A DNA stretch of 54,786 bases from a virus. Its lineage: Duplodnaviria > Caudoviricetes. The translations under genes and the position numbers were made by a program. The stretch lies in the IMG/VR virus record IMGVR_UViG_3300036826_000065, positions 1-54,786 of that record. One strand, 5' to 3'. The notes beneath the pieces are model-generated. The model made no database searches. It saw nothing but the letters and a program-made list of their open reading frames with translations, and was not told the DNA's origin. Position 1 is the first letter of the stretch, and every line of letters starts with the position of its first letter. Below are positions 525-37,096 of the stretch, piece by piece.

Positions 525-1492
525 CAAGCCGCCTCCTCCTTCTCTTCCTTCAAAAGTTTGGAGGTCAGCAGAAACCTCCGGCTTCCTTCCTTCGTCCGCG
601 AGTAGAACTCGATCAAGGCGTCACGTTCGGTCGGCAGCATGAACTGATTCATCAGCCCGCGAGCCATCGACTCCCAGTCAATAATGGTCCGGTCCTTGGT
701 CTTCCTCCAGGTGACCTGACCATCGACCCACTTGATGCCCTCGCGATTGGCGATCAATTGCTGTATCTGGACCTCCAGGTCTTCCTTGCGCCGCTTCAGG
801 TCGGCGCCGTTGATGCGGTTCCAAAGATACTCGTTCAATAACTCCAGTTCGGATTCATGGGCGAAGCGAAGGTCGGGCCTCTTGTGCGTGGGATAAGTCC
901 GCTGCAACCATCGCCGCGACAGGTCGCTGGAGGTAAGCTCCACCGGCACGCCGCGCACGACATGCGCGTCCCACCAGCGGCTGGCGACTCCCAGCAAGGC
1001 GTTGAATAACTCCGGGTCATGGCGGAACTCGTAATAGCGCATGGTCCCCCTATCATGGACAGCCAGAATCCAAGCCTCGCGCCCAGATACACCCAGATAC
1101 CAGTAACACTGAAGCGCGAAGTGCGCGGGCACTGAATCAATCGACTCCCCGAAGTGCAGGGGACTGAACTGTGTAACATGCTTGGCCTCCACGCCGACCT
1201 TCTCGCCCAGGGCGTCAGCGGTCCCCAGGGCGATGGCGCATTCGGGATGCTGGATCATGACGTTGGGCGTCACCGTCAGATTGAACCGGCGACTCGCCAG
1301 CGTGATGATGGCGGATTCAAACACATGCCCTTCGGCACGCTCATCGTCTACCTGGGGCTCCGGCTCCGCAATCGTCTCCGGCTCCGCAATCTTACTGATG
1401 AGCACGTCGCTCTCATCCTTGAACGGGTCTTCATGAATCAACGCCGATATGTCGCTTCCGCCGATGCCCAGGCGGCGCCGCAGCGGGTCCAT
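524..1492 (-). CDS. YqaJ-like viral recombinase/exonuclease
   Basis: RRLGIGGSD, GHVFE, TADAL..GVEAK and QCYWYLGV motifs; adjacent to recT; start placed at the coupled ATG 1492. Confidence 0.88.
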   Translation of the reverse strand: MDPLRRRLGIGGSDISALIHEDPFKDESDVLISKIAEPETIAEPEPQVDDERAEGHVFESAIITLASRRFNLTVTPNVMIQHPECAIALGTADALGEKVGVEAKHVTQFSPLHFGESIDSVPAHFALQCYWYLGVSGREAWILAVHDRGTMRYYEFRHDPELFNALLGVASRWWDAHVVRGVPVELTSSDLSRRWLQRTYPTHKRPDLRFAHESELELLNEYLWNRINGADLKRRKEDLEVQIQQLIANREGIKWVDGQVTWRKTKDRTIIDWESMARGLMNQFMLPTERDALIEFYSRTKEGSRRFLLTSKLLKEEKEEAA

Positions 1493-7293: not shown

Positions 7294-10200
7294 TTAATCT
7301 CCCGCCGCCGTGATGGTAACCGACTCCAGCGGTCCCAGCGTTATTGTCGTCGCGGCGTCCCATAGCGGATCGCCCGCTTGCGGCGTGATGATCACGTTGT
7401 GCGTGCCCTTGACGTTGGCGATGTACAGCGCACGCCCCTGGTAATCCGCCAGCGCGAGCAGATGCACCGGCACATCGTTGGTGGAGCAGTCCACGCGGAT
7501 CGTCTGGTCGGTGACGCGGGCGAGCCAGAACGTGCTGCCAGAAACGTCTGGGTCGTTGGCAGATGGACCGATCTCGCGCACGCCCGGAGGTTCCGCGAAG
7601 ATGAAGATCTCGCGCATGCACGCCGACTCCTCATCGGTGATCCGCCCTTGATCATCGACCAGGAAGCCGCCGACCAGGGCGACCATGTTCTGCAAGTTCT
7701 CGATGCGCAGCCGCAATTCAAACGACACGCCAGGAGCCATGACGCTGGTGTCGGTCGTCTCAGTGAAGTAGACCCAATCGCGAGCTTCCACGATGCACAA
7801 CGACGTGTTGTCCGGCGGCGTGTCCAGCGGCGGGTTGACGGTGATGCGGATGTTTGTGTTCGCCGTGATGGCGCGAAACTGTCCGGCGCCCTTGCCGCGA
7901 ATGATGCGGAATATGTTGCCGACCTCCACGCCAGGATCGAGGCCAGCCCAGCCTGGGCGGAAGCCGGACTGTGCATAGCCTACAGAGTTATTCCACAGGG
8001 AATCCTCAACCCAGGTTCCGCCCGCGTCCCAGGAAGTCGGCTGCGACCGGGCGATCAGAACATCCCCAGGCTGTAGGGGATCACCGGCCATCGGGTCCGG
8101 CGTGACCGTGAACGATCCGGCGCTACTGTTGAAACCGATCACCTTGAAATTCCACAGGGGTGCAGAACCATCGCTGGCGTCCGCGACCGCTGTCAGGATG
8201 CGATTGTTCCAGTTATCGGTTGAGCCGATGAAGTCGTTCGACTGGATCGTGTTCGCCGCAACGCCGGTCACGACCACGCCAGCCACGCCACTGTGCCAGA
8301 CATGCTTCGCCTGGATACGCACCTTGCGAGCGGACTGTTCGGGAAGCTCGTGCGTCATGGGATGGACGGGACCGTTGAACGTGGTGCTCGTTGGTAGCGG
8401 CGCGACCGTGCTCTGCTGCCAGCCGATCAACCGCCGGTCGGTCCCCGCGTACAAATCCCAGGTGTCCCAGGAGCCGCTGGTCGCTGGCGTCATGTCGAGA
8501 TGCACGCCCTGGCCGGTGACGCCCGCAGGAATCCAGAGTGCAATCGGAAGAGACGGAATCGTGTAGCCCGCTGGCCCATGCTGGCCTACCGCGACGTAGA
8601 TCGTCATCGGACCATTCAGCGTGCCGCCTGGGACCAGCGTTGCGCCTAAGATCCTGGGCTGCACCTGCGCGGGAAATGTGTTGATGACCATCTCGCCGCT
8701 GACGAAAATGCTGGGCGCCCAGACGCCCTCGCGAGTAATGTTGTAGTCCTGCCACAAATCAAACGAACGCTCCATCGCATCGGTGTATACCGGATCGCCG
8801 GCAACCGGCCCAATACGATTCGGCATCCACGCGAGCCCATTGATGGAGGGCAGATGCTCCGGTATCACCGGGTCGGTCGGCACGTCGGCTGGCTTGGGAC
8901 CGGCGGTGAAGTCGTACATCGAATCGGTCACGCCGGAGCAGACGATATCGATGGAGAAGTCCGGGTTCAGCGTCCAGCGCTGCACGCGCCCTTTCTGGTA
9001 TGCGCTCGCGCCCGCAGGTAGCCGCGAATGCTGGACGCCGATAATATCGCCGCACTTGGTCTGCATCGCGAGCAGAGTCGTGCGGAACTGCATGTTGCGC
9101 GTGTTCTGCGGTTCGGTCGGTCCCCAGCCGCCCAGTTCCTCGCGCAGCCTTGCGACGAGGATGCGAGCGGCTTGCGACTTGGTGGACACGCCGACAAAGC
9201 TCATCTGGTTGCGCGTATACATCGGCGCCGCGCCGTTACCGGCGAATATCGCCTGATCAATGTCGTAAACGGAGATGGTGTTCAGGGCCCAGCCGGAGCC
9301 GGTCTGTGTCTGATCCGCCGCAAACTCCTCATCGCCAAATTGACCATCGAGCCAATTGAACTGCGGCGCCATCGGCGTTGCCTGAAGCGACTGGTACAGG
9401 ATGGTGTCTCGCGTGAAGCCCTGGCCCGTGAGCACGGCGGCGTTCTCGCGGATTCCGATCCAGAGCTTGCCATTGACGAAGGTGTAATACCCGCAGCAGC
9501 AGTTCAGAATTTCCTGAATCCAGTCCTTCAGCGGCTTCTGTTCTTTCAGCACGCCGCGAAACTTGAACTGCGATTCGTTCTGGGTCGGCACGATCATGCT
9601 GGGCACGATCTCCTCGCAGATCGCCGCCGCCGCGAGCGCCGCGTCCAGGTCGAAGTAATTCTCCATCTCGTTGGCCGGGATGGTGCCGATGATATCGTTG
9701 GTCACTTTCTCGCCCAGCCCGCGCAGGAAGACGTTGATCGCGATCCAGACCGGGTTACTGAGTCTCTGCTGCCAGTTGCGCGTCTTGTCGGCGTTCCACG
9801 ACCAGCCGTACATGCCGCCGACCACGGTGACGGTCATGTGCCGGTCCACAACCTGCTTCAGTTGCATGCCCGCGTCATCGGTGCGCCGCACTTCCGCGAA
9901 CGCCACGCCAGCGGCATAAGTGCTCTGCGCCGGAACCGCGCCCCAGGGCGAACTGCTGAGTTGAAAATATTCCGTTGTTAGATTTGCCGGATCGTTGCCG
10001 TTGATCCCGCGAAAGCCGCCGTTGTGAACGGGATCGTGCGGCGGCTGGTCGTCCAGCTTGTGCTTGAGCAGGTTGGTCGCGTAGCCCGCAATCGGACCCT
10101 CGCTGACGATGCCCAGGGCGCTGTAGAACTCGCTTTCTTCGCGACCGGCGGCGACGTCGCACACGACCGGCATCTCGTGGTCGGACCAGATCTCCTGAAT

Positions 10201-11346
10201 GGGCCGCTGATAGACGCTCTCGTTGGTCAGCGTGACCGAAGTGATGCGCGAACGCCCAAAGCCGAAGACGCCGGTTGAGTTGTCCTTCAGGCGGACGCTC
10301 GCCGGTAGCGCCACGATGCCGCCGAAGGAGCCCTTCACGCCGCGAGCGACACACGCATCGTAGTCCTTCGGACAATCGGGGAAGCTGGCCGTGCTGGGGC
10401 AGAACCGGCCCTTGTAGACCTTCCAGCACGTGCGCGAGACGGTGCGCGAGGGATAAGGAATGCCCAGTTCAAAGACGCCGTCGGAGCATTGGATGATGAA
10501 CCGGCCATCGCTGGTGAGGTTCCAGGGCCTCGCGTAGCCAGCCCAGAAGTCGATCAGGTAATTGGAATTGACGTGGAATAACTTGAACTCCACCGTGGCG
10601 CGGTAGAGGTTGATCAGGTTGGCGTACTGCGTCCAGACGTCATCGCTGTTACCGAACGTGAACGTGACCGCATCGCTGGCCTCGTTCAGCGTCTGCGTGA
10701 TCGCGGACCACTCCAGCAAGCGAGGCAGGAATAGCTGACCGTTCATGGTGACTCGCCGGTTGCTCAGATATAGCGGATCAGGCGCGACCGGACTGGGCAC
10801 AGACGCCGTTGGGACCGGCGTGCGCGGTGAGATCTTCACCAGCGGGATGAACTCCTGCACTTGCGCCTGAAGCGCCGGAGTTAGTGTCGCATCGGGGAAT
10901 CGCGTCACGCGCTGGGAAGCGCTGAACGTGTAGTTCGCCGTCGTCGTGGAAACCTCGATGAGCGTAATGCCGGGGTCGTTGCAGAGCATCGCGTAGAGAT
11001 GGTCGAAGGTGATCGAGGGGTTCTCGTAGCGGCACACCACGACCTCGGAGCCGCCGGGAAACTGATGCGTGTAATTGAACTGCGCGTACTGCCCTTGTGC
11101 TTGTTGGAAGTGGACCTTGAGCGCGTTGTACTCGTTGCAGGCGAGCCCGCGTGAGCGCACCACGCGGAACCGGCGTGCGCCGTTGCCCAGGAGGTAGCGT
11201 TGCTCCTGGTTGAGCCCCGGCTGGTCGAAGGTATGGATCGCAATCGGAGGCGTCCAGTCGAAGCCGCTGGCGTATTCGCCGGTAAGCGGAAAGTCTCCGA
11301 TGACGTGCGGATCAGGAATCGCAATCGGACCCAGGGAGTCGCTCAC
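7294..11346 (-). CDS. tail tip / baseplate hub protein
   Basis: 1350 aa after the distal tail gene; Cys cluster RTCWKVY...CP...CPKDYDAC..RG...FGG typical of tail-tip proteins. Confidence 0.75.
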   Translation of the reverse strand: MSDSLGPIAIPDPHVIGDFPLTGEYASGFDWTPPIAIHTFDQPGLNQEQRYLLGNGARRFRVVRSRGLACNEYNALKVHFQQAQGQYAQFNYTHQFPGGSEVVVCRYENPSITFDHLYAMLCNDPGITLIEVSTTTANYTFSASQRVTRFPDATLTPALQAQVQEFIPLVKISPRTPVPTASVPSPVAPDPLYLSNRRVTMNGQLFLPRLLEWSAITQTLNEASDAVTFTFGNSDDVWTQYANLINLYRATVEFKLFHVNSNYLIDFWAGYARPWNLTSDGRFIIQCSDGVFELGIPYPSRTVSRTCWKVYKGRFCPSTASFPDCPKDYDACVARGVKGSFGGIVALPASVRLKDNSTGVFGFGRSRITSVTLTNESVYQRPIQEIWSDHEMPVVCDVAAGREESEFYSALGIVSEGPIAGYATNLLKHKLDDQPPHDPVHNGGFRGINGNDPANLTTEYFQLSSSPWGAVPAQSTYAAGVAFAEVRRTDDAGMQLKQVVDRHMTVTVVGGMYGWSWNADKTRNWQQRLSNPVWIAINVFLRGLGEKVTNDIIGTIPANEMENYFDLDAALAAAAICEEIVPSMIVPTQNESQFKFRGVLKEQKPLKDWIQEILNCCCGYYTFVNGKLWIGIRENAAVLTGQGFTRDTILYQSLQATPMAPQFNWLDGQFGDEEFAADQTQTGSGWALNTISVYDIDQAIFAGNGAAPMYTRNQMSFVGVSTKSQAARILVARLREELGGWGPTEPQNTRNMQFRTTLLAMQTKCGDIIGVQHSRLPAGASAYQKGRVQRWTLNPDFSIDIVCSGVTDSMYDFTAGPKPADVPTDPVIPEHLPSINGLAWMPNRIGPVAGDPVYTDAMERSFDLWQDYNITREGVWAPSIFVSGEMVINTFPAQVQPRILGATLVPGGTLNGPMTIYVAVGQHGPAGYTIPSLPIALWIPAGVTGQGVHLDMTPATSGSWDTWDLYAGTDRRLIGWQQSTVAPLPTSTTFNGPVHPMTHELPEQSARKVRIQAKHVWHSGVAGVVVTGVAANTIQSNDFIGSTDNWNNRILTAVADASDGSAPLWNFKVIGFNSSAGSFTVTPDPMAGDPLQPGDVLIARSQPTSWDAGGTWVEDSLWNNSVGYAQSGFRPGWAGLDPGVEVGNIFRIIRGKGAGQFRAITANTNIRITVNPPLDTPPDNTSLCIVEARDWVYFTETTDTSVMAPGVSFELRLRIENLQNMVALVGGFLVDDQGRITDEESACMREIFIFAEPPGVREIGPSANDPDVSGSTFWLARVTDQTIRVDCSTNDVPVHLLALADYQGRALYIANVKGTHNVIITPQAGDPLWDAATTITLGPLESVTITAAGD

Positions 11347-34057: not shown

Positions 34058-34288
34058 CTAGTTGGACTCCCTGGGCGATTCCATTGAATCCAATTCGACA
34101 GCCGCTATCGTCGTCAGGTCGTATCCCTGAGCATCAACACGATCAATCAAGCTTGACCATGCGGCTGTCAGGGACTCGCAGTGAAAGCAGAATAGGCGCG
34201 TGCGCCCATTGTTCAAATGGAACCGAAAAAAGAACAACGATAGGCGCGTATCGTTGTTGATCAACTGAGTATGTCTGTTAATCGTCAT
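34058..34288 (-). CDS. small hypothetical protein (ribozyme cassette)
   Basis: ATG 9 nt after the ribozyme-borne GGGAG. Confidence 0.6.
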   Translation of the reverse strand: MTINRHTQLINNDTRLSLFFFRFHLNNGRTRLFCFHCESLTAAWSSLIDRVDAQGYDLTTIAAVELDSMESPRESN

Positions 34289-34297
34289 AGTGGGTAT

Positions 34298-34348
34298 CTC
34301 CCTACGCCTCACGGCGTTTCGTCCCATCCCAGGGACTCATCAGGGGAG
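34298..34348 (-). ncRNA. type I hammerhead ribozyme, copy 1
   Basis: CUCCC-CUGAUGA-GUCCC(UGGGAU)GGGAC-GAAA-CGCC(GUGA)GGCG-UA/GGGAG. Confidence 0.92.
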
Positions 34349-35065
34349 TTAGGATGCGAGCACAATAAAGGGAGAGTCGGCGTTAATCGCGAGTCCCTTC
34401 GCCCTTAAGCCGACAACGACTCCCTTCGGGTCCAGAAATCGCAAGTCGTGCAAGTCGCCATCAATCACACGGTAACCATGCCACGTCTCAGGCAAAGGGA
34501 AACCTTTGCGCACATGAAACACGACAGCGACATTGACGCCTAGCGCGAGTACTCGCAGGGACTCAGTTAGATTCTCGCCACTGTAGCTGTATGTCAGATG
34601 GTAGTTAGGTAGCTGGCGCAAATCCGCTTTAGGTAGTTTGGTGTAATCGTAAAAGGTTACCTGGGGAAACGACCGCGCCATTTCTTTGGCTAACCACGGT
34701 AGATCACTCGTGCCGTTGATACGGACAGCTAAACGCATGCCGCGTTTGGCGGCGCGGCGCACGTACATGCCAATGTCATACCTGAGGCATGCCAGAAACA
34801 ATGCACGATTGCCAGCCAGCAACATAGTCTTGGCGACTCGTGCCGCTTGCACGTTGCGAAACCGCCCCATGCCAGCCATATTGAGACATAGCGCTATGCA
34901 CCATGCCGTTGCGCCTAGGCAGACATTGAGGACTCCTGAAGACATAGCTGGCGCCAGATACATAATCGCTGTCAGCCAGCCTAGGGACTCGCCCTTGACA
35001 GTCTTGTAATTGTCATCCTGCAATAGCCGTTTGTAACCGTTTGGTTTCCGTTTATTCGTCGTCAT
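34349..35065 (-). CDS. phage GP88-like protein
   Basis: C...C..CL..AG.G, RINGTSDLPW, FYDYTK, NYHLTYS, DGDLHDLRFLD and VGLRAKG motifs. Confidence 0.7.
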   Translation of the reverse strand: MTTNKRKPNGYKRLLQDDNYKTVKGESLGWLTAIMYLAPAMSSGVLNVCLGATAWCIALCLNMAGMGRFRNVQAARVAKTMLLAGNRALFLACLRYDIGMYVRRAAKRGMRLAVRINGTSDLPWLAKEMARSFPQVTFYDYTKLPKADLRQLPNYHLTYSYSGENLTESLRVLALGVNVAVVFHVRKGFPLPETWHGYRVIDGDLHDLRFLDPKGVVVGLRAKGLAINADSPFIVLAS

Positions 35066-35077
35066 AGTAGTTTGGGT

Positions 35078-35128
35078 CTCCCTACGCCTCACGGCGTTTC
35101 GTCCCATCCCAGGGACTCATCAGGGGAG
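35078..35128 (-). ncRNA. type I hammerhead ribozyme, copy 2
   Basis: Identical 51-nt core to copy 1. Confidence 0.92.
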
Positions 35129-35347
35129 TTAGCGAACCCGGAACACCGGACGGCGCCCACAGTCCTCCCCAGGGCGCACGGCAACGTTGATTCTACCGAC
35201 CTTGATTTCGGAACCGCCAGCTAACCACTGATACTTGCGCGGCGAAACCTTGACCCATGGACCATGCGCAAAGTTGTAGCAAGTACACTCCAGTACGGAG
35301 TGATCGAATTCAAACGTGGCGCCAATTTCCAGGTCGCGAAATTTCAT
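35129..35347 (-). CDS. small hypothetical protein
   Basis: MKFRDLEIG; coupled (TAATG); stop abuts the ribozyme. Confidence 0.6.
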   Translation of the reverse strand: MKFRDLEIGATFEFDHSVLECTCYNFAHGPWVKVSPRKYQWLAGGSEIKVGRINVAVRPGEDCGRRPVFRVR

Positions 35348-35571
35348 TAGCGTAAACCTCCATTGAGCAGCACACGATAAGTGTGATTCCCAGCAAAGTC
35401 GCTGTATCGGTATTCCACGCGATTACGATTCCGATAATCGCGTGTTGCGTCGTTATGGCCGAAGTAGTCACGAGTCCAATCTGTCGCCAGCCAGAGAAAC
35501 TCGCAATGAACGGTGACGTCAAATGACGTTTCCGTCTGGTTTTCAAAACATACGATGTAAGGTCTTTCCAT
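35347..35571 (-). CDS. small hypothetical protein
   Basis: ATG 9 nt after the ribozyme GGGAG. Confidence 0.6.
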   Translation of the reverse strand: MERPYIVCFENQTETSFDVTVHCEFLWLATDWTRDYFGHNDATRDYRNRNRVEYRYSDFAGNHTYRVLLNGGLR

Positions 35572-35580
35572 AGTGGGTAT

Positions 35581-35631
35581 CTCCCTACGCCTCACGGCGT
35601 TTCGTCCCATCCCAGGGACTCATCAGGGGAG
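35581..35631 (-). ncRNA. type I hammerhead ribozyme, copy 3
   Basis: Identical 51-nt core. Confidence 0.92.
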
Positions 35632-35871
35632 TTAGTGTCTCCAAAACTTGCCATTCGGACTGGCAGCGCCGTCAGGATTGATATAACCGTGGCATTCGTC
35701 AGCGGGTCTATACCACGTCAGCAATAGGGACTCTGACGGATTAGCATAGTGCTTAAGGTATCGGCGCATTTGCAGCATCGCGCCCTGATCAGTGTGCGCC
35801 GTCAGGCGAACATAATTTCGCTCGCCTAGGCTGTCGATAATCTCAATCGCGTATGTCGTGTAAGGTTTCAT
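35632..35871 (-). CDS. small hypothetical protein
   Basis: MKPYTTYAIE; bounded by two ribozymes. Confidence 0.65.
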   Translation of the reverse strand: MKPYTTYAIEIIDSLGERNYVRLTAHTDQGAMLQMRRYLKHYANPSESLLLTWYRPADECHGYINPDGAASPNGKFWRH

Positions 35872-35880
35872 CGTTTGTGT

Positions 35881-35936
35881 CTCCCTACGGCGCCGTGGGC
35901 GCCGTTTCGTCCCATCCCAGGGACTCATCAGGGGAG
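35881..35936 (-). ncRNA. type I hammerhead ribozyme, copy 4 (variant stem III)
   Basis: Same core; stem III is CGGCGCC(CAC)GGCGCCG, a different sequence with pairing retained. Confidence 0.92.
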
Positions 35937-36161
35937 TTAGGACAAGTCAGCCAGTAGCGCAACGACGGCGCCGATTACCGCGCCGCCTAGTCCGGTGATT
36001 GCCGCCCATGCGCCGGCTGACCAGACAGTGGGCGCCGCAACATGGAGTGTTGCCGCGACAGCTAGCGCGAGAAATCCGACCGCTGAAAGACCCAGGGCGC
36101 CGCACATGAAGTAGTCAACTACCGGGATGCCGTTTGTGTAACTGCGTTTGTTGTTTGTCAT
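35937..36161 (-). CDS. small two-TM membrane protein
   Basis: Two hydrophobic helices; first gene of the ribozyme operon. Confidence 0.6.
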   Translation of the reverse strand: MTNNKRSYTNGIPVVDYFMCGALGLSAVGFLALAVAATLHVAAPTVWSAGAWAAITGLGGAVIGAVVALLADLS

Positions 36162-36171
36162 AGGTAAGTCA

Positions 36172-36201
36172 ATCCTAGTGACTACTCCCCAAGGTAGTCA
36201 A
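36172..36201 (-). promoter_or_regulatory. promoter of the ribozyme operon with overlapping palindrome
   Basis: TTGACT-18 bp-TAGGAT; TGACTAC/GTAGTCA inverted repeat inside. Confidence 0.6.
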
Positions 36202-36555
36202 GTGTCGGCGCAAGTCAGCTATTGACTTTGCGGCGCAAACGCGAGTTAGGCTGACTCAGTGGCGCCGACCGCCGTGCGCCGCATGCCATAGTCTTACCGT
36301 GCGCCCTGGGCATGCTGTATCAGTGACTTACAGCATGCCGTAGGACTAGCTATAGGCGTTAGCCGGTTTCGGACCGACCGCTCGGTTTCCTGACCCCGGC
36401 TTTCCCCTTTGTTTTCAAGCACGTACCAGCGTTACAAGAAATTTCACCCCAAACGGGCTTGGGGCGTTTGGAGAGGTCGATCCTATAGATTTTGAATGGG
36501 CCAATTTTTGGCCGGAAATATTTTGGGAGTCCCAGGCCGGAGACAGAGCCCATAT

Positions 36556-36595
36556 AAAAGGAAAGCCCCGCGCCGCCGAAGCGGAACGCGGGGCT
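36556..36595 (-). terminator. intrinsic terminator
   Basis: AGCCCCGCG...CGCGGGGCT followed by TTCCTTTT. Confidence 0.7.
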
Positions 36596-36616
36596 GAAGG
36601 TTTCCAGGGGGGGGTG

Positions 36617-36862
36617 CTACTTACCCCAAACGTCTGGCAGCATGGACTGACAAACCGCTTCAAACAGGCTGTCGATGGCTTTCAGCGGTACACCATCCAG
36701 ATCAGATACGCTCCGCATGATGGTAACGACTTCCCGCGCAATCATCGCCTCTTGCAGCCCCACGCCCAGGGCACGGTAGACCGGGTCGCTTGAGAGCTTT
36801 TTTGAAATCGCCTTGAGTTGAGCTTTTTGCCAGTTGCCGCCCTGAAGGCTGGGGCTCGTCAC
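36617..36862 (-). CDS. hypothetical protein
   Basis: GTGA-coupled; GGAGG SD. Confidence 0.55.
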   Translation of the reverse strand: MTSPSLQGGNWQKAQLKAISKKLSSDPVYRALGVGLQEAMIAREVVTIMRSVSDLDGVPLKAIDSLFEAVCQSMLPDVWGK

Positions 36863-37011
36863 TGCACTTCCTCCGCGAGGAGGTCGAGAGCCATGTCGAT
36901 ATGGACGGCGGCGTCCCGCAGGTGGTCGATGGCGGTTTGGCCTTCGGCTTCCATAGCCGCGCCCAGTTTGATGATGGCGCTATTCGCGAGTTCTTTCCAG
37001 GTCGTCTTCAT
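36859..37011 (-). CDS. 50-aa hypothetical protein (not in the ORF track)
   Basis: MKTTWKELANSAIIKLG...; GGGAG SD. Confidence 0.55.
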   Translation of the reverse strand: MKTTWKELANSAIIKLGAAMEAEGQTAIDHLRDAAVHIDMALDLLAEEVQ

Positions 37012-37067
37012 GGTGGGTGTCTCCCTTAGATCTCAGCCTAAGGGGTAATCGCGCCTTCAAGTCAAGC

Positions 37068-37096
37068 AAAAAAGAGGGCCTCGCAGAAGGAGGCCC
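37068..37096 (-). terminator. intrinsic terminator
   Basis: GGGCCTC-loop-GAGGCCC followed by TCTTTTTT. Confidence 0.7.

Follow-up and report, generated by a model that had tools for sequence, protein, structure and literature searches.

The DNA analyzed here, 54,786 bp long and with direct repeats at its termini, represents a complete virus record (IMG/VR record IMGVR_UViG_3300036826_000065; Duplodnaviria, Caudoviricetes), hereafter called the window, whose minus strand holds nearly all of its long open reading frames (ORFs). Within 1.64 kb of this strand (34298 to 35936) were found four near-identical elements of 51 to 56 nt each, which flank genes B, C-D and E of a small-gene operon (genes A to F) and which have the core, helices and cleavage triplet of a hammerhead ribozyme. 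Every statement on the sequence was verified on the minus strand, to which the coordinates below refer unless indicated otherwise. The elements are hammerhead 1 (HH1, 35881..35936), located 3' of the TAA of gene A; hammerhead 2 (HH2, 35581..35631), 3' of the TAA of gene B; hammerhead 3 (HH3, 35078..35128), 3' of the TAA of gene D; and hammerhead 4 (HH4, 34298..34348), 3' of the TAA of gene E. A preliminary description of this DNA had reported four repeats with a full core, a GUA cleavage triplet and stems I to III, and each of these features could be read in all four copies.

Each element is composed, in order, of CUCCC, CUGAUGA, GUCCC-UGGGAU-GGGAC, GAAA, a closed GC-rich hairpin, UA and GGGAG. 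The catalytic core (C3 U4 G5 A6 N7 G8 A9 ... G12 A13 A14) is complete in the four copies of the window, where the CUGAUGA...GAAA segments of HH1 to HH4 lie at 35931-35905, 35626-35600, 35123-35097 and 34343-34317, and likewise in the four copies of a related phage contig, L189, described below. Matches to the pattern CUGAUGA-N(8-36)-CGAAA numbered four in the window compared to 0.25 expected, and none of 100 shuffled sequences reached this number. Stem I is formed by CUCCC/GGGAG (5 bp, with G1.1-C2.1 paired) and stem II by GUCCC-UGGGAU-GGGAC (5 bp, with G10.1-C11.1 paired). Stem III has the sequence A-CGCC-GUGA-GGCG-U in HH2 to HH4 (5 bp, including A15.1-U16.1) and A-CGGCGCC-CAC-GGCGCCG-U in HH1 (8 bp, including the A-U pair); the latter, at 35936, is the copy to which a different but paired stem III had been ascribed as 'copy 4', and it is indeed fully paired. 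The cleavage triplet is GUA in all eight copies of the window and L189, such that position H17 is an A. Since loops close stems II and III but not stem I, which is open, the topology was assigned to type I. Stems II and III are plain hairpins of 5 to 8 bp with loops of 3 to 6 nt, and no ligand- or signal-sensing domain was detected in them. The predicted cuts fall at 35886/35885 (HH1), 35586/35585 (HH2), 35083/35082 (HH3) and 34303/34302 (HH4), in agreement with the positions given in the preliminary description.

The Shine-Dalgarno sequence as a strand of stem I

The 3' strand of stem I, GGGAG, is the only Shine-Dalgarno (SD)-like sequence before genes B, C, E and F, and is separated from the ATG of these genes by 9, 9, 12 and 9 nt, respectively, as had been noted (9-12 nt) in the preliminary description. 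GGAG at a distance of 5 to 12 nt is the usual SD of the clear genes of this phage. The use of the SD as one strand of stem I is real and uncommon. On the opposite side of each ribozyme, the TAA stop codons of the upstream ORFs A, B, D and E (35939-35937, 35634-35632, 35131-35129 and 34351-34349) lie 0 nt before stem I in 4/4 cases, which bears out the earlier claim that each copy follows directly on a TAA. After the predicted cuts, the leader of gene B would consist of GGGAG plus 9 nt (35872..35885, ATG at 35871), that of gene C of GGGAGAUACCCACU (35572..35585, ATG at 35571), that of gene E of GGGAGACCCAAACUACU (35066..35082, ATG at 35065) and that of gene F again of GGGAGAUACCCACU (34289..34302, ATG at 34288).

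From TAA to ATG these junctions form a 67-nt repeat family with identities to the reference copy of 100, 91, 100 and 64%, and the cassettes of HH2 and HH4 match each other at 100% over 67 nt. The cassettes of HH2 to HH4 close all three reading frames by means of the TAA, two in-frame TGAs of CUGAUGA, a TGA in the stem III loop and a TAG at the cut site; the cassette of HH1 closes only two.

The proteins encoded between the ribozymes are mostly small. Gene B (79 aa, 35632..35871) belongs to no known family, and no family was assigned to gene C (74 aa, 35347-35571). Gene D (72 aa, 35129-35347) overlaps gene C by TAATG, with no ribozyme between the two, and has a GGAGG of its own. Gene E (238 aa, 34349..35065), of unassigned function, matched the Pfam family GP88 (PF17338, 4.5e-69) and phrog_1617 (1.3e-41). 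At the two ends of the series lie gene A (74 aa, 35937..36161), which has no family and no SD and by eye encodes a small hydrophobic protein, and gene F (76 aa, 34058..34288), also without a family, which contains a terminator-like hairpin.

Partition-function folding with 40-nt flanks returned a probability of 0 to 0.36 for the SD to be unpaired before the cut, and the last two bases of the SD (AG) were predicted to be free after it. The free energy of stem I was about -7 kcal/mol. When the elements were folded in isolation, the minimum free energy (MFE) structure was the canonical three-way junction, at -23.3 to -30.3 kcal/mol (HH1, -30.3 kcal/mol). In context with 40-nt flanks, the hammerhead was the MFE structure of HH1 to HH3, with probabilities of 0.46 to 0.71.

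Family membership, covariation and loop II

A covariance model, R1, was built from the four copies of the window and the four of L189. When the whole window was searched with filters off, R1 returned exactly four matches, at 83.6 bits for HH1 and 80.9 bits for each of HH2, HH3 and HH4, and the next best match scored 10.6 bits. The same model found 101 type I hammerheads in 100 viral loci. In the 87 distinct rows of the resulting alignment, 97.6% of the cells at paired positions were paired, compared to 65.4 +/- 0.9% after shuffling and 28.7-42.1% when the partner column was slid, and changes on both sides of a pair were detected in 13 of the 15 pairs (398 cells compared to 105 expected). The core nucleotides CUGAUGA, GAAA and UA were invariant in the eight copies and across the 101-member family. 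Judged by their sequence, the elements are genuine phage type I hammerheads, members of the class in an arrangement that has already been described.

The preliminary description had further suggested that UGGG of loop II can pair with a downstream CCCA in three copies. This complementarity (4 bp) was found in three copies of the eight in the window and L189, but a pseudoknot as a conserved feature was not upheld: copy b of L189 combines CCCAC with a loop of UGCAAU, two loops of sequence UGGGAC lack a CCCA to pair with, and CCCAC is also present in the hammerhead-less leader behind promoter-like site P1 (37016-37012; see below). Among 90 family members, complementary runs of at least 4 between loop II and the 3' tail were counted in 28, a weak excess over the 22.8 +/- 3.3 obtained by permutation, and runs of at least 5 in 9 compared to 5.2 +/- 2.0. 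A second candidate contact, in which loop II (UGGGAU or UGGGAC) pairs over 6 bp with the last sense codon and the UA of the stop codon (R-UCCUA), is available to HH1 (35937-35942), HH4 (34349-34354) and copy c of L189 (about 11131-11136) and includes one U-A to C-G change that is apparently compensatory. This pairing was not adopted; it is absent from the other five of the eight copies, and the corresponding 5'-tail count in the class was 26 compared to 23.1 +/- 3.5 by permutation. About 40% of hammerheads have been reported to use such pseudoknots (PMC3088659).

Related phages, genomic context and distribution of the layout

Contig L189, which is also contig L206 (53.5 kb), shows synteny to the window with about 75-89% nucleotide identity (about 80% in the genes neighboring the ribozymes), and has four hammerheads of the same family in which the core and stems I and II are invariant. 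Its loop II sequences are UGGGAU, UGCAAU or UGGGAC, and its stem III occurs in three forms, all of them paired. The gene for GP88 is flanked by ribozymes in both phages. The remaining cassette content differs: gene B of the window is replaced in L189 by a PAPS-reductase gene and a gene X, and an extra gene Y of L189 is enclosed by two ribozymes. The L189 homologue of gene C (C') has no ribozyme in front and carries an ordinary GGAGG site. After the L189 homologue of gene A, the sequence TAA|GGGAGACACAA-ATG (at ~8726-8742) leads into the PAPS-reductase-like gene that is absent from the window; TAA|GGGAGACACAA equals the window junction minus the 51-nt CUCCC...GUA block. Based on this junction and on the site of C', the ribozyme is an optional insert, placed between a stop codon and an SD that works in its absence, and not a precondition for the SD. 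A third relative, from run X6, has a 5-nt insertion in stem III of HH3. An apparent joint of 34288 to 35877 in X6 was considered as a deletion and rejected, as it has only 28 letters on one side and reflects the similarity among ribozyme and leader copies. In a more distantly related contig, L133, whose terminase has about 61% amino-acid identity, a hammerhead-like element (1139-1198, minus strand) was observed with the same leader, GGGAGAUACCCAAC-AUG; its two extra U residues before stem II may mark it as a variant of the core or as a copy in decay.

The surroundings of 95 other type I hammerheads were surveyed by use of crude ORF rules. Placement in an intercistronic gap was the rule among these contexts. 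Of the 86 contexts with a next ORF, 70 had its start no more than 50 nt from the cut (median, 31 nt), and the upstream stop codon overlapped or abutted the ribozyme in 49 of the 78 that had one. In 20 of these contexts the upstream stop is the first UGA of CUGAUGA, such that the core doubles as a stop codon. Two to seven copies were detected in 19 of 71 loci, and the copies were co-oriented within the locus in 19/19. An array in a viral contig of 92.7 kb (L067, 1336-6895) has seven co-oriented type I hammerheads in 5.5 kb and is denser than that of the window; each copy lies between genes, with a separate GGAGG downstream of stem I.

By contrast to intercistronic placement, an SD inside stem I was rare in the survey, with 3/95 contexts, each of which belongs to contig L073, and one further, doubtful case. 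The doubtful case, L042, was scored by script as having the SD in stem I and by eye seems to have a different topology. Contig L073 is unrelated to the window phage apart from the ribozyme body, and its three hammerheads are mutually divergent; in 3/3 of them a TAA lies at or near stem I and (U/G)GGAG is found 5 to 10 nt before the ATG, and a C-G to A-U change is included that preserves GGAG. Additional SD-in-stem cases were recognized by eye in L132, L141, L195, L183 and L133, in a scan biased to UCCC/GGGA stems.

Upstream of the operon, promoter-like sites of a form particular to this phage, TTGACT-N18/19-TAGGMT, were found three times in the window compared to 0.01 expected, all within 36172-37065. 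Site P2 (TTGACT-N18-TAGGAT, 36172..36201) has its -10 hexamer 10 nt before the ATG of gene A and, on the basis of this match, is likely the start of the ribozyme-bearing transcript. Since gene A has no SD and its ATG is 10 nt from the P2 hexamer, the mRNA from which it is translated would have almost no leader. Site P1 (TTGACT-N19-TAGGCT, 37065-37035) lies 3' of a terminator-like hairpin, and both P1 and this hairpin are conserved in L189. Behind P1 is a leader without a ribozyme, TAAGGGAGACACCCACC-ATG (P1 plus leader, 37011..37065; AUG leader given at 37028), which is nearly the same as the predicted post-cleavage leaders (GGGAGAUACCCACU-AUG). If transcription from P1 started at the usual distance from the -10 hexamer, its transcript would begin 1-2 nt before GGGAG. 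A leader-like TAAGGGAGAC module is found downstream of a conserved promoter-like site.

Other features of this region were recorded. The segment from 36162 to 36616 comprises about 450 nt without convincing ORFs and has divergent promoter-like sites at 36201-36172 (minus strand) and 36222-36252 (plus strand), with a perfect 11-bp inverted repeat, GGCATGCTGTA...TACAGCATGCC, near 36335-36305. The third promoter-like site, at 37065-37035, is preceded by the terminator-like hairpin at 37096-37076. The segments 36162-36616 and 37035-37096 may together represent a regulatory switch region. At the other end of the operon, a 10-bp hairpin followed by six T residues (34258-34233, minus strand) is located 30 nt inside ORF F and differs in L189 by one loop base. 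This hairpin could be a terminator or attenuator that closes the ribozyme operon; if it terminates, the product downstream of HH4 would be a short RNA, or gene F would be expressed via read-through only.

Matches to PHROG families in the window included the large terminase, portal, head protease, serine integrase, DNA methyltransferase and an O-like replication initiator; the set of terminase, portal, protease, serine integrase and O-like initiator indicates a temperate tailed phage. The stretch is also present in soil metagenome runs, and an identical contig of 54.8 kb is binned in a Blastocatellia metagenome-assembled genome (MAG) of 10.2 Mb. The phage probably has a soil acidobacterium as its host, an assignment that is tentative because the contig is free-standing in this MAG, which holds no other copies. 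No tRNA or tmRNA genes were found in the window, nor did riboswitch families of Rfam match it. In the INPHARED set of cultured phages, no cassette was detected; the sole match was an 89-nt coding stretch.

Proposed operon processing, alternative explanations and known systems

We propose that the four elements are functional type I hammerheads, which probably split the operon co-transcriptionally into separate mRNAs with SD-first 5'-OH leaders. The motif, topology, placement, family covariation and presence/absence polymorphism were observed, whereas cleavage in vivo, release of the products and any effect on mRNA stability or translation are inferred. In the setting proposed, an early or middle operon of small genes in a temperate soil phage, each cassette of 67-72 nt would bring together stop codon, ribozyme, SD, spacer and start codon. 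Transcription would probably proceed from 36201-36172, and each ribozyme would fold and cut after GUA, with A, B, C-D, E and F-onward as the predicted products. The piece upstream of a cut would keep its stop codon and end with two GC-rich hairpins and a 2',3'-cyclic phosphate, and the piece downstream would start with 5'-OH-GGGAG, placing the SD at the extreme 5' end of a 14-17 nt leader. As stem I has only 5 bp (about -7 kcal/mol), the products should separate and leave the SD available. By this means, internal cistrons would gain the same SD-first short leader as the promoter-proximal cistron behind P1, and the net effect would be an mRNA fate of its own for each cistron plus a standard, context-independent start of translation. 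The masking of the SD before the cut is probably secondary in this process, since relatives carry the same junction without a ribozyme.

A number of results weigh against operon processing as proposed here. In the Infernal comparison to Rfam that had been suggested as a check, no hammerhead model matched the window at gathering score. In permissive searches, RF00008 (Hammerhead_3) scored 27.2-41.4 bits compared to a cut-off of 48.5, with alignments that fit the core and stem II only and force the wrong type III topology, and RF00163 (Hammerhead_1) scored 17.8-19.3 bits compared to a cut-off of 34, aligning positions 1-45 of 45 with exactly these spans; at the permissive E-value used (up to 10), RF00163 also matched 13/14 control genomes, none above cut-off. 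The 100 viral loci had been pre-fetched with a pattern of core and stem II that fixed four stem II pairs, and the covariation alignment was fitted to R1; the covariation of stems I and III is unaffected by the fetching pattern. The probability of the hammerhead fold of HH2 fell to 0.06-0.19 with longer flanks, and that of HH4 in context was 0.00-0.17, at 0.4-5.3 kcal/mol above the MFE, as the upstream CUCUCCCU competes for the SD; co-transcriptional folding could still favor the ribozyme. After cleavage, GGG is predicted to re-pair with a downstream CCC in three copies to form a 3-bp hairpin at the 5' end, such that the sequestration of the SD described earlier was supported by folding and its complete release was not. 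No conserved contact between stem I and loop II was established across the eight copies and 90 family members, and cleavage at cellular Mg2+ may therefore be slow. The promoter-like sites are consensus matches only. Among the runs that contain window sequence no RNA run was found; the aligned run contigs are of DNA only, are broken at repeats and have no bearing on cleavage. Judging from the L189 alleles, the genes can evidently be expressed without the ribozyme, and any benefit of the latter is putative.

The last point bears most directly on a stricter form of the proposal, in which stem I would hold the SD until self-cleavage and translation of B, C, E and F would depend on the ribozyme. 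This gating is possible, although we consider it doubtful. The SD is the 3' strand of stem I in 4/4 copies of the window and 4/4 of L189, the three divergent hammerheads of L073 share the layout and include the base change that keeps GGAG, the by-eye cases of the pattern-biased scan (L132, L141, L195, L183 and L133) extend it, the SD is largely paired before the cut (0-0.36 unpaired), and a synthetic design of this kind works in E. coli (PMC7445771). However, a 5-bp stem of -7 kcal/mol is a weak block for a ribosome, and, judging from footprint size, a ribosome that terminates at the adjoining UAA would extend over both stem I and the core and thereby open the SD. The preliminary description had inferred that self-cleavage frees the SD; cleavage as a requirement for translation is weakened by the identical ribozyme-less TAA|GGGAGACACAA-ATG junction and by the GGAGG before gene C'. 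Gating is further disfavored by the predicted re-pairing of GGG in 3/4 copies after the cut, the rarity of the layout in the class (3/95 contexts in one contig, plus the doubtful one) and the lack of an aptamer-like insert by which the ribozyme might be regulated. Masking of the SD exists; that it acts as a strong or obligatory gate is unlikely. A related and more speculative scheme, which we put forward as rather unlikely, is a 'stop-cut-start' device in which a race between ribosome and ribozyme would set coupled versus independent expression and the mRNA decay of each gene. Stem I would here be a mimic of the SD:anti-SD duplex that immediately abuts the stop codon upstream. Transcripts that are new or not being translated would cut to give an SD-first 5'-OH mRNA, and the next gene would then need the cut; when a ribosome terminates on UAA, it would lie over stem I and the core, block the cut and couple translation to the next gene. 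If true, bacterial or phage hammerheads would here gain their first defined physiological role, and synthetic SD-masking ribozyme switches a natural prototype.

The remaining explanations assign the cassettes little or no role in separating mRNAs. They might persist by duplication, or as homology for gene exchange, with little effect on expression, an unlikely reading that would account for the complete identity of HH2 and HH4 over 67 nt when the window phage and L189 differ by ~20%, for the exchange of content at ribozyme boundaries between the two phages (B for the PAPS-reductase gene and X, and the extra Y), for the shuffling of loop II and stem III types among the L189 copies and for similar ribozyme bodies in the otherwise unrelated contigs L073 and L196. 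Yet the catalytic core is intact in 8/8 copies and the stems change only in compatible ways, which is unexpected of a homology patch, and exact stop-SD placement and co-orientation with the genes is the rule in 19/19 multi-copy loci; recombination and function can, moreover, coexist. That the elements are non-catalytic, acting as an intercistronic stabilizer or RNase signal with a vestigial likeness to hammerheads, is highly improbable: a single-stranded core adds nothing to the stability of a hairpin and is nevertheless invariant in the eight copies and the 101-member family, and the consensus-core prophage hammerheads tested in 2011 were active (PMC3088659). The scores below all Rfam cut-offs, the failure to find a tertiary contact and the GC-rich hairpins at the 3' ends speak in its favor. 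Finally, the internal products B, C-D and E would carry matching half-ribozymes at both ends, and gene-length RNAs, released with a 5'-OH and a 2',3'-cyclic phosphate, might be joined to spliced or circular mRNAs through the reverse reaction of the ribozyme or through a ligase of the RtcB type. This possibility was raised in the 2011 study, which detected neither spliced nor circular products according to its text (PMC3088659), and excision and joining is hardly to be expected here.

The locus leaves knowledge of the class unchanged. What it offers is a clean test system, with four near-identical ribozymes that are each fused to both stop codon and SD, an allele of the junction in a close relative that naturally has no ribozyme, and a promoter-proximal leader of the same form.

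The closest known systems are the clustered prophage hammerheads of Perreault et al. (2011), including the ardA triple of Agrobacterium tumefaciens and the clusters of Azorhizobium caulinodans and Clostridium scindens (PMC3088659). Three prophage arrays were reported to cleave in vitro and one, from A. tumefaciens, in E. coli, and the authors proposed that a polycistronic transcript is processed into mRNAs the length of an operon or of a gene (PMC3088659). Like the elements of the window, these are co-oriented, consensus-core hammerheads located on either side of single genes or short gene blocks of temperate phages. The arrangement is therefore less new than the preliminary description had implied, which was correct in that hammerheads near phage genes are known. 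Reviews of 2017 (PMC6155905) and 2019 (PMC6765202) still call their role in phages and prophages open. The main text of the 2011 study (PMC3088659) contains neither 'Shine' nor 'ribosome binding', and an SD overlap may yet occur in its examples. The search of the literature, with subscription papers and supplements outside its range, returned no description of a natural hammerhead in which stem I carries the SD. By contrast to the prophage clusters, the SD of the window is a strand of stem I, the stop codon abuts the ribozyme and the host is probably a soil acidobacterium.

Hammerheads upstream of coding regions are also known from other viruses. In the haloarchaeal viruses HF1/HF2, a hammerhead similarly precedes a start codon by 13 nt and heads an early polycistronic transcript, the mapped 5' end of which lies within 3 nt of the cut; unlike the elements of the window, this hammerhead is a single copy with a core variant and an archaeal host, and no SD in a stem is described for it in the account given there (PMC3088659). 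In the 5' untranslated regions (UTRs) of fungal and plant RNA viruses, self-cleavage by type I hammerheads upstream of the coding region is likewise tied to translation, but by cap-independent initiation in eukaryotes and in RNA genomes, and the account of these viruses involves no SD or operon processing (PMC13725137). The likeness to designed molecules concerns the SD itself. Synthetic designs with the SD in stem I reportedly date from 2008. In synthetic type I switches, as in the window, the SD is paired in stem I before a bacterial gene and is exposed by cleavage (PMC7445771). These switches have an extended stem I and an aptamer in stem III and are placed in a 5' UTR (PMC7445771), whereas the natural elements have a stem I of 5 bp, no sensor and an intercistronic position. 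Thus, the concealment of an SD within stem I of type I hammerheads, as used by synthetic biologists, exists naturally in several unrelated phage contigs.

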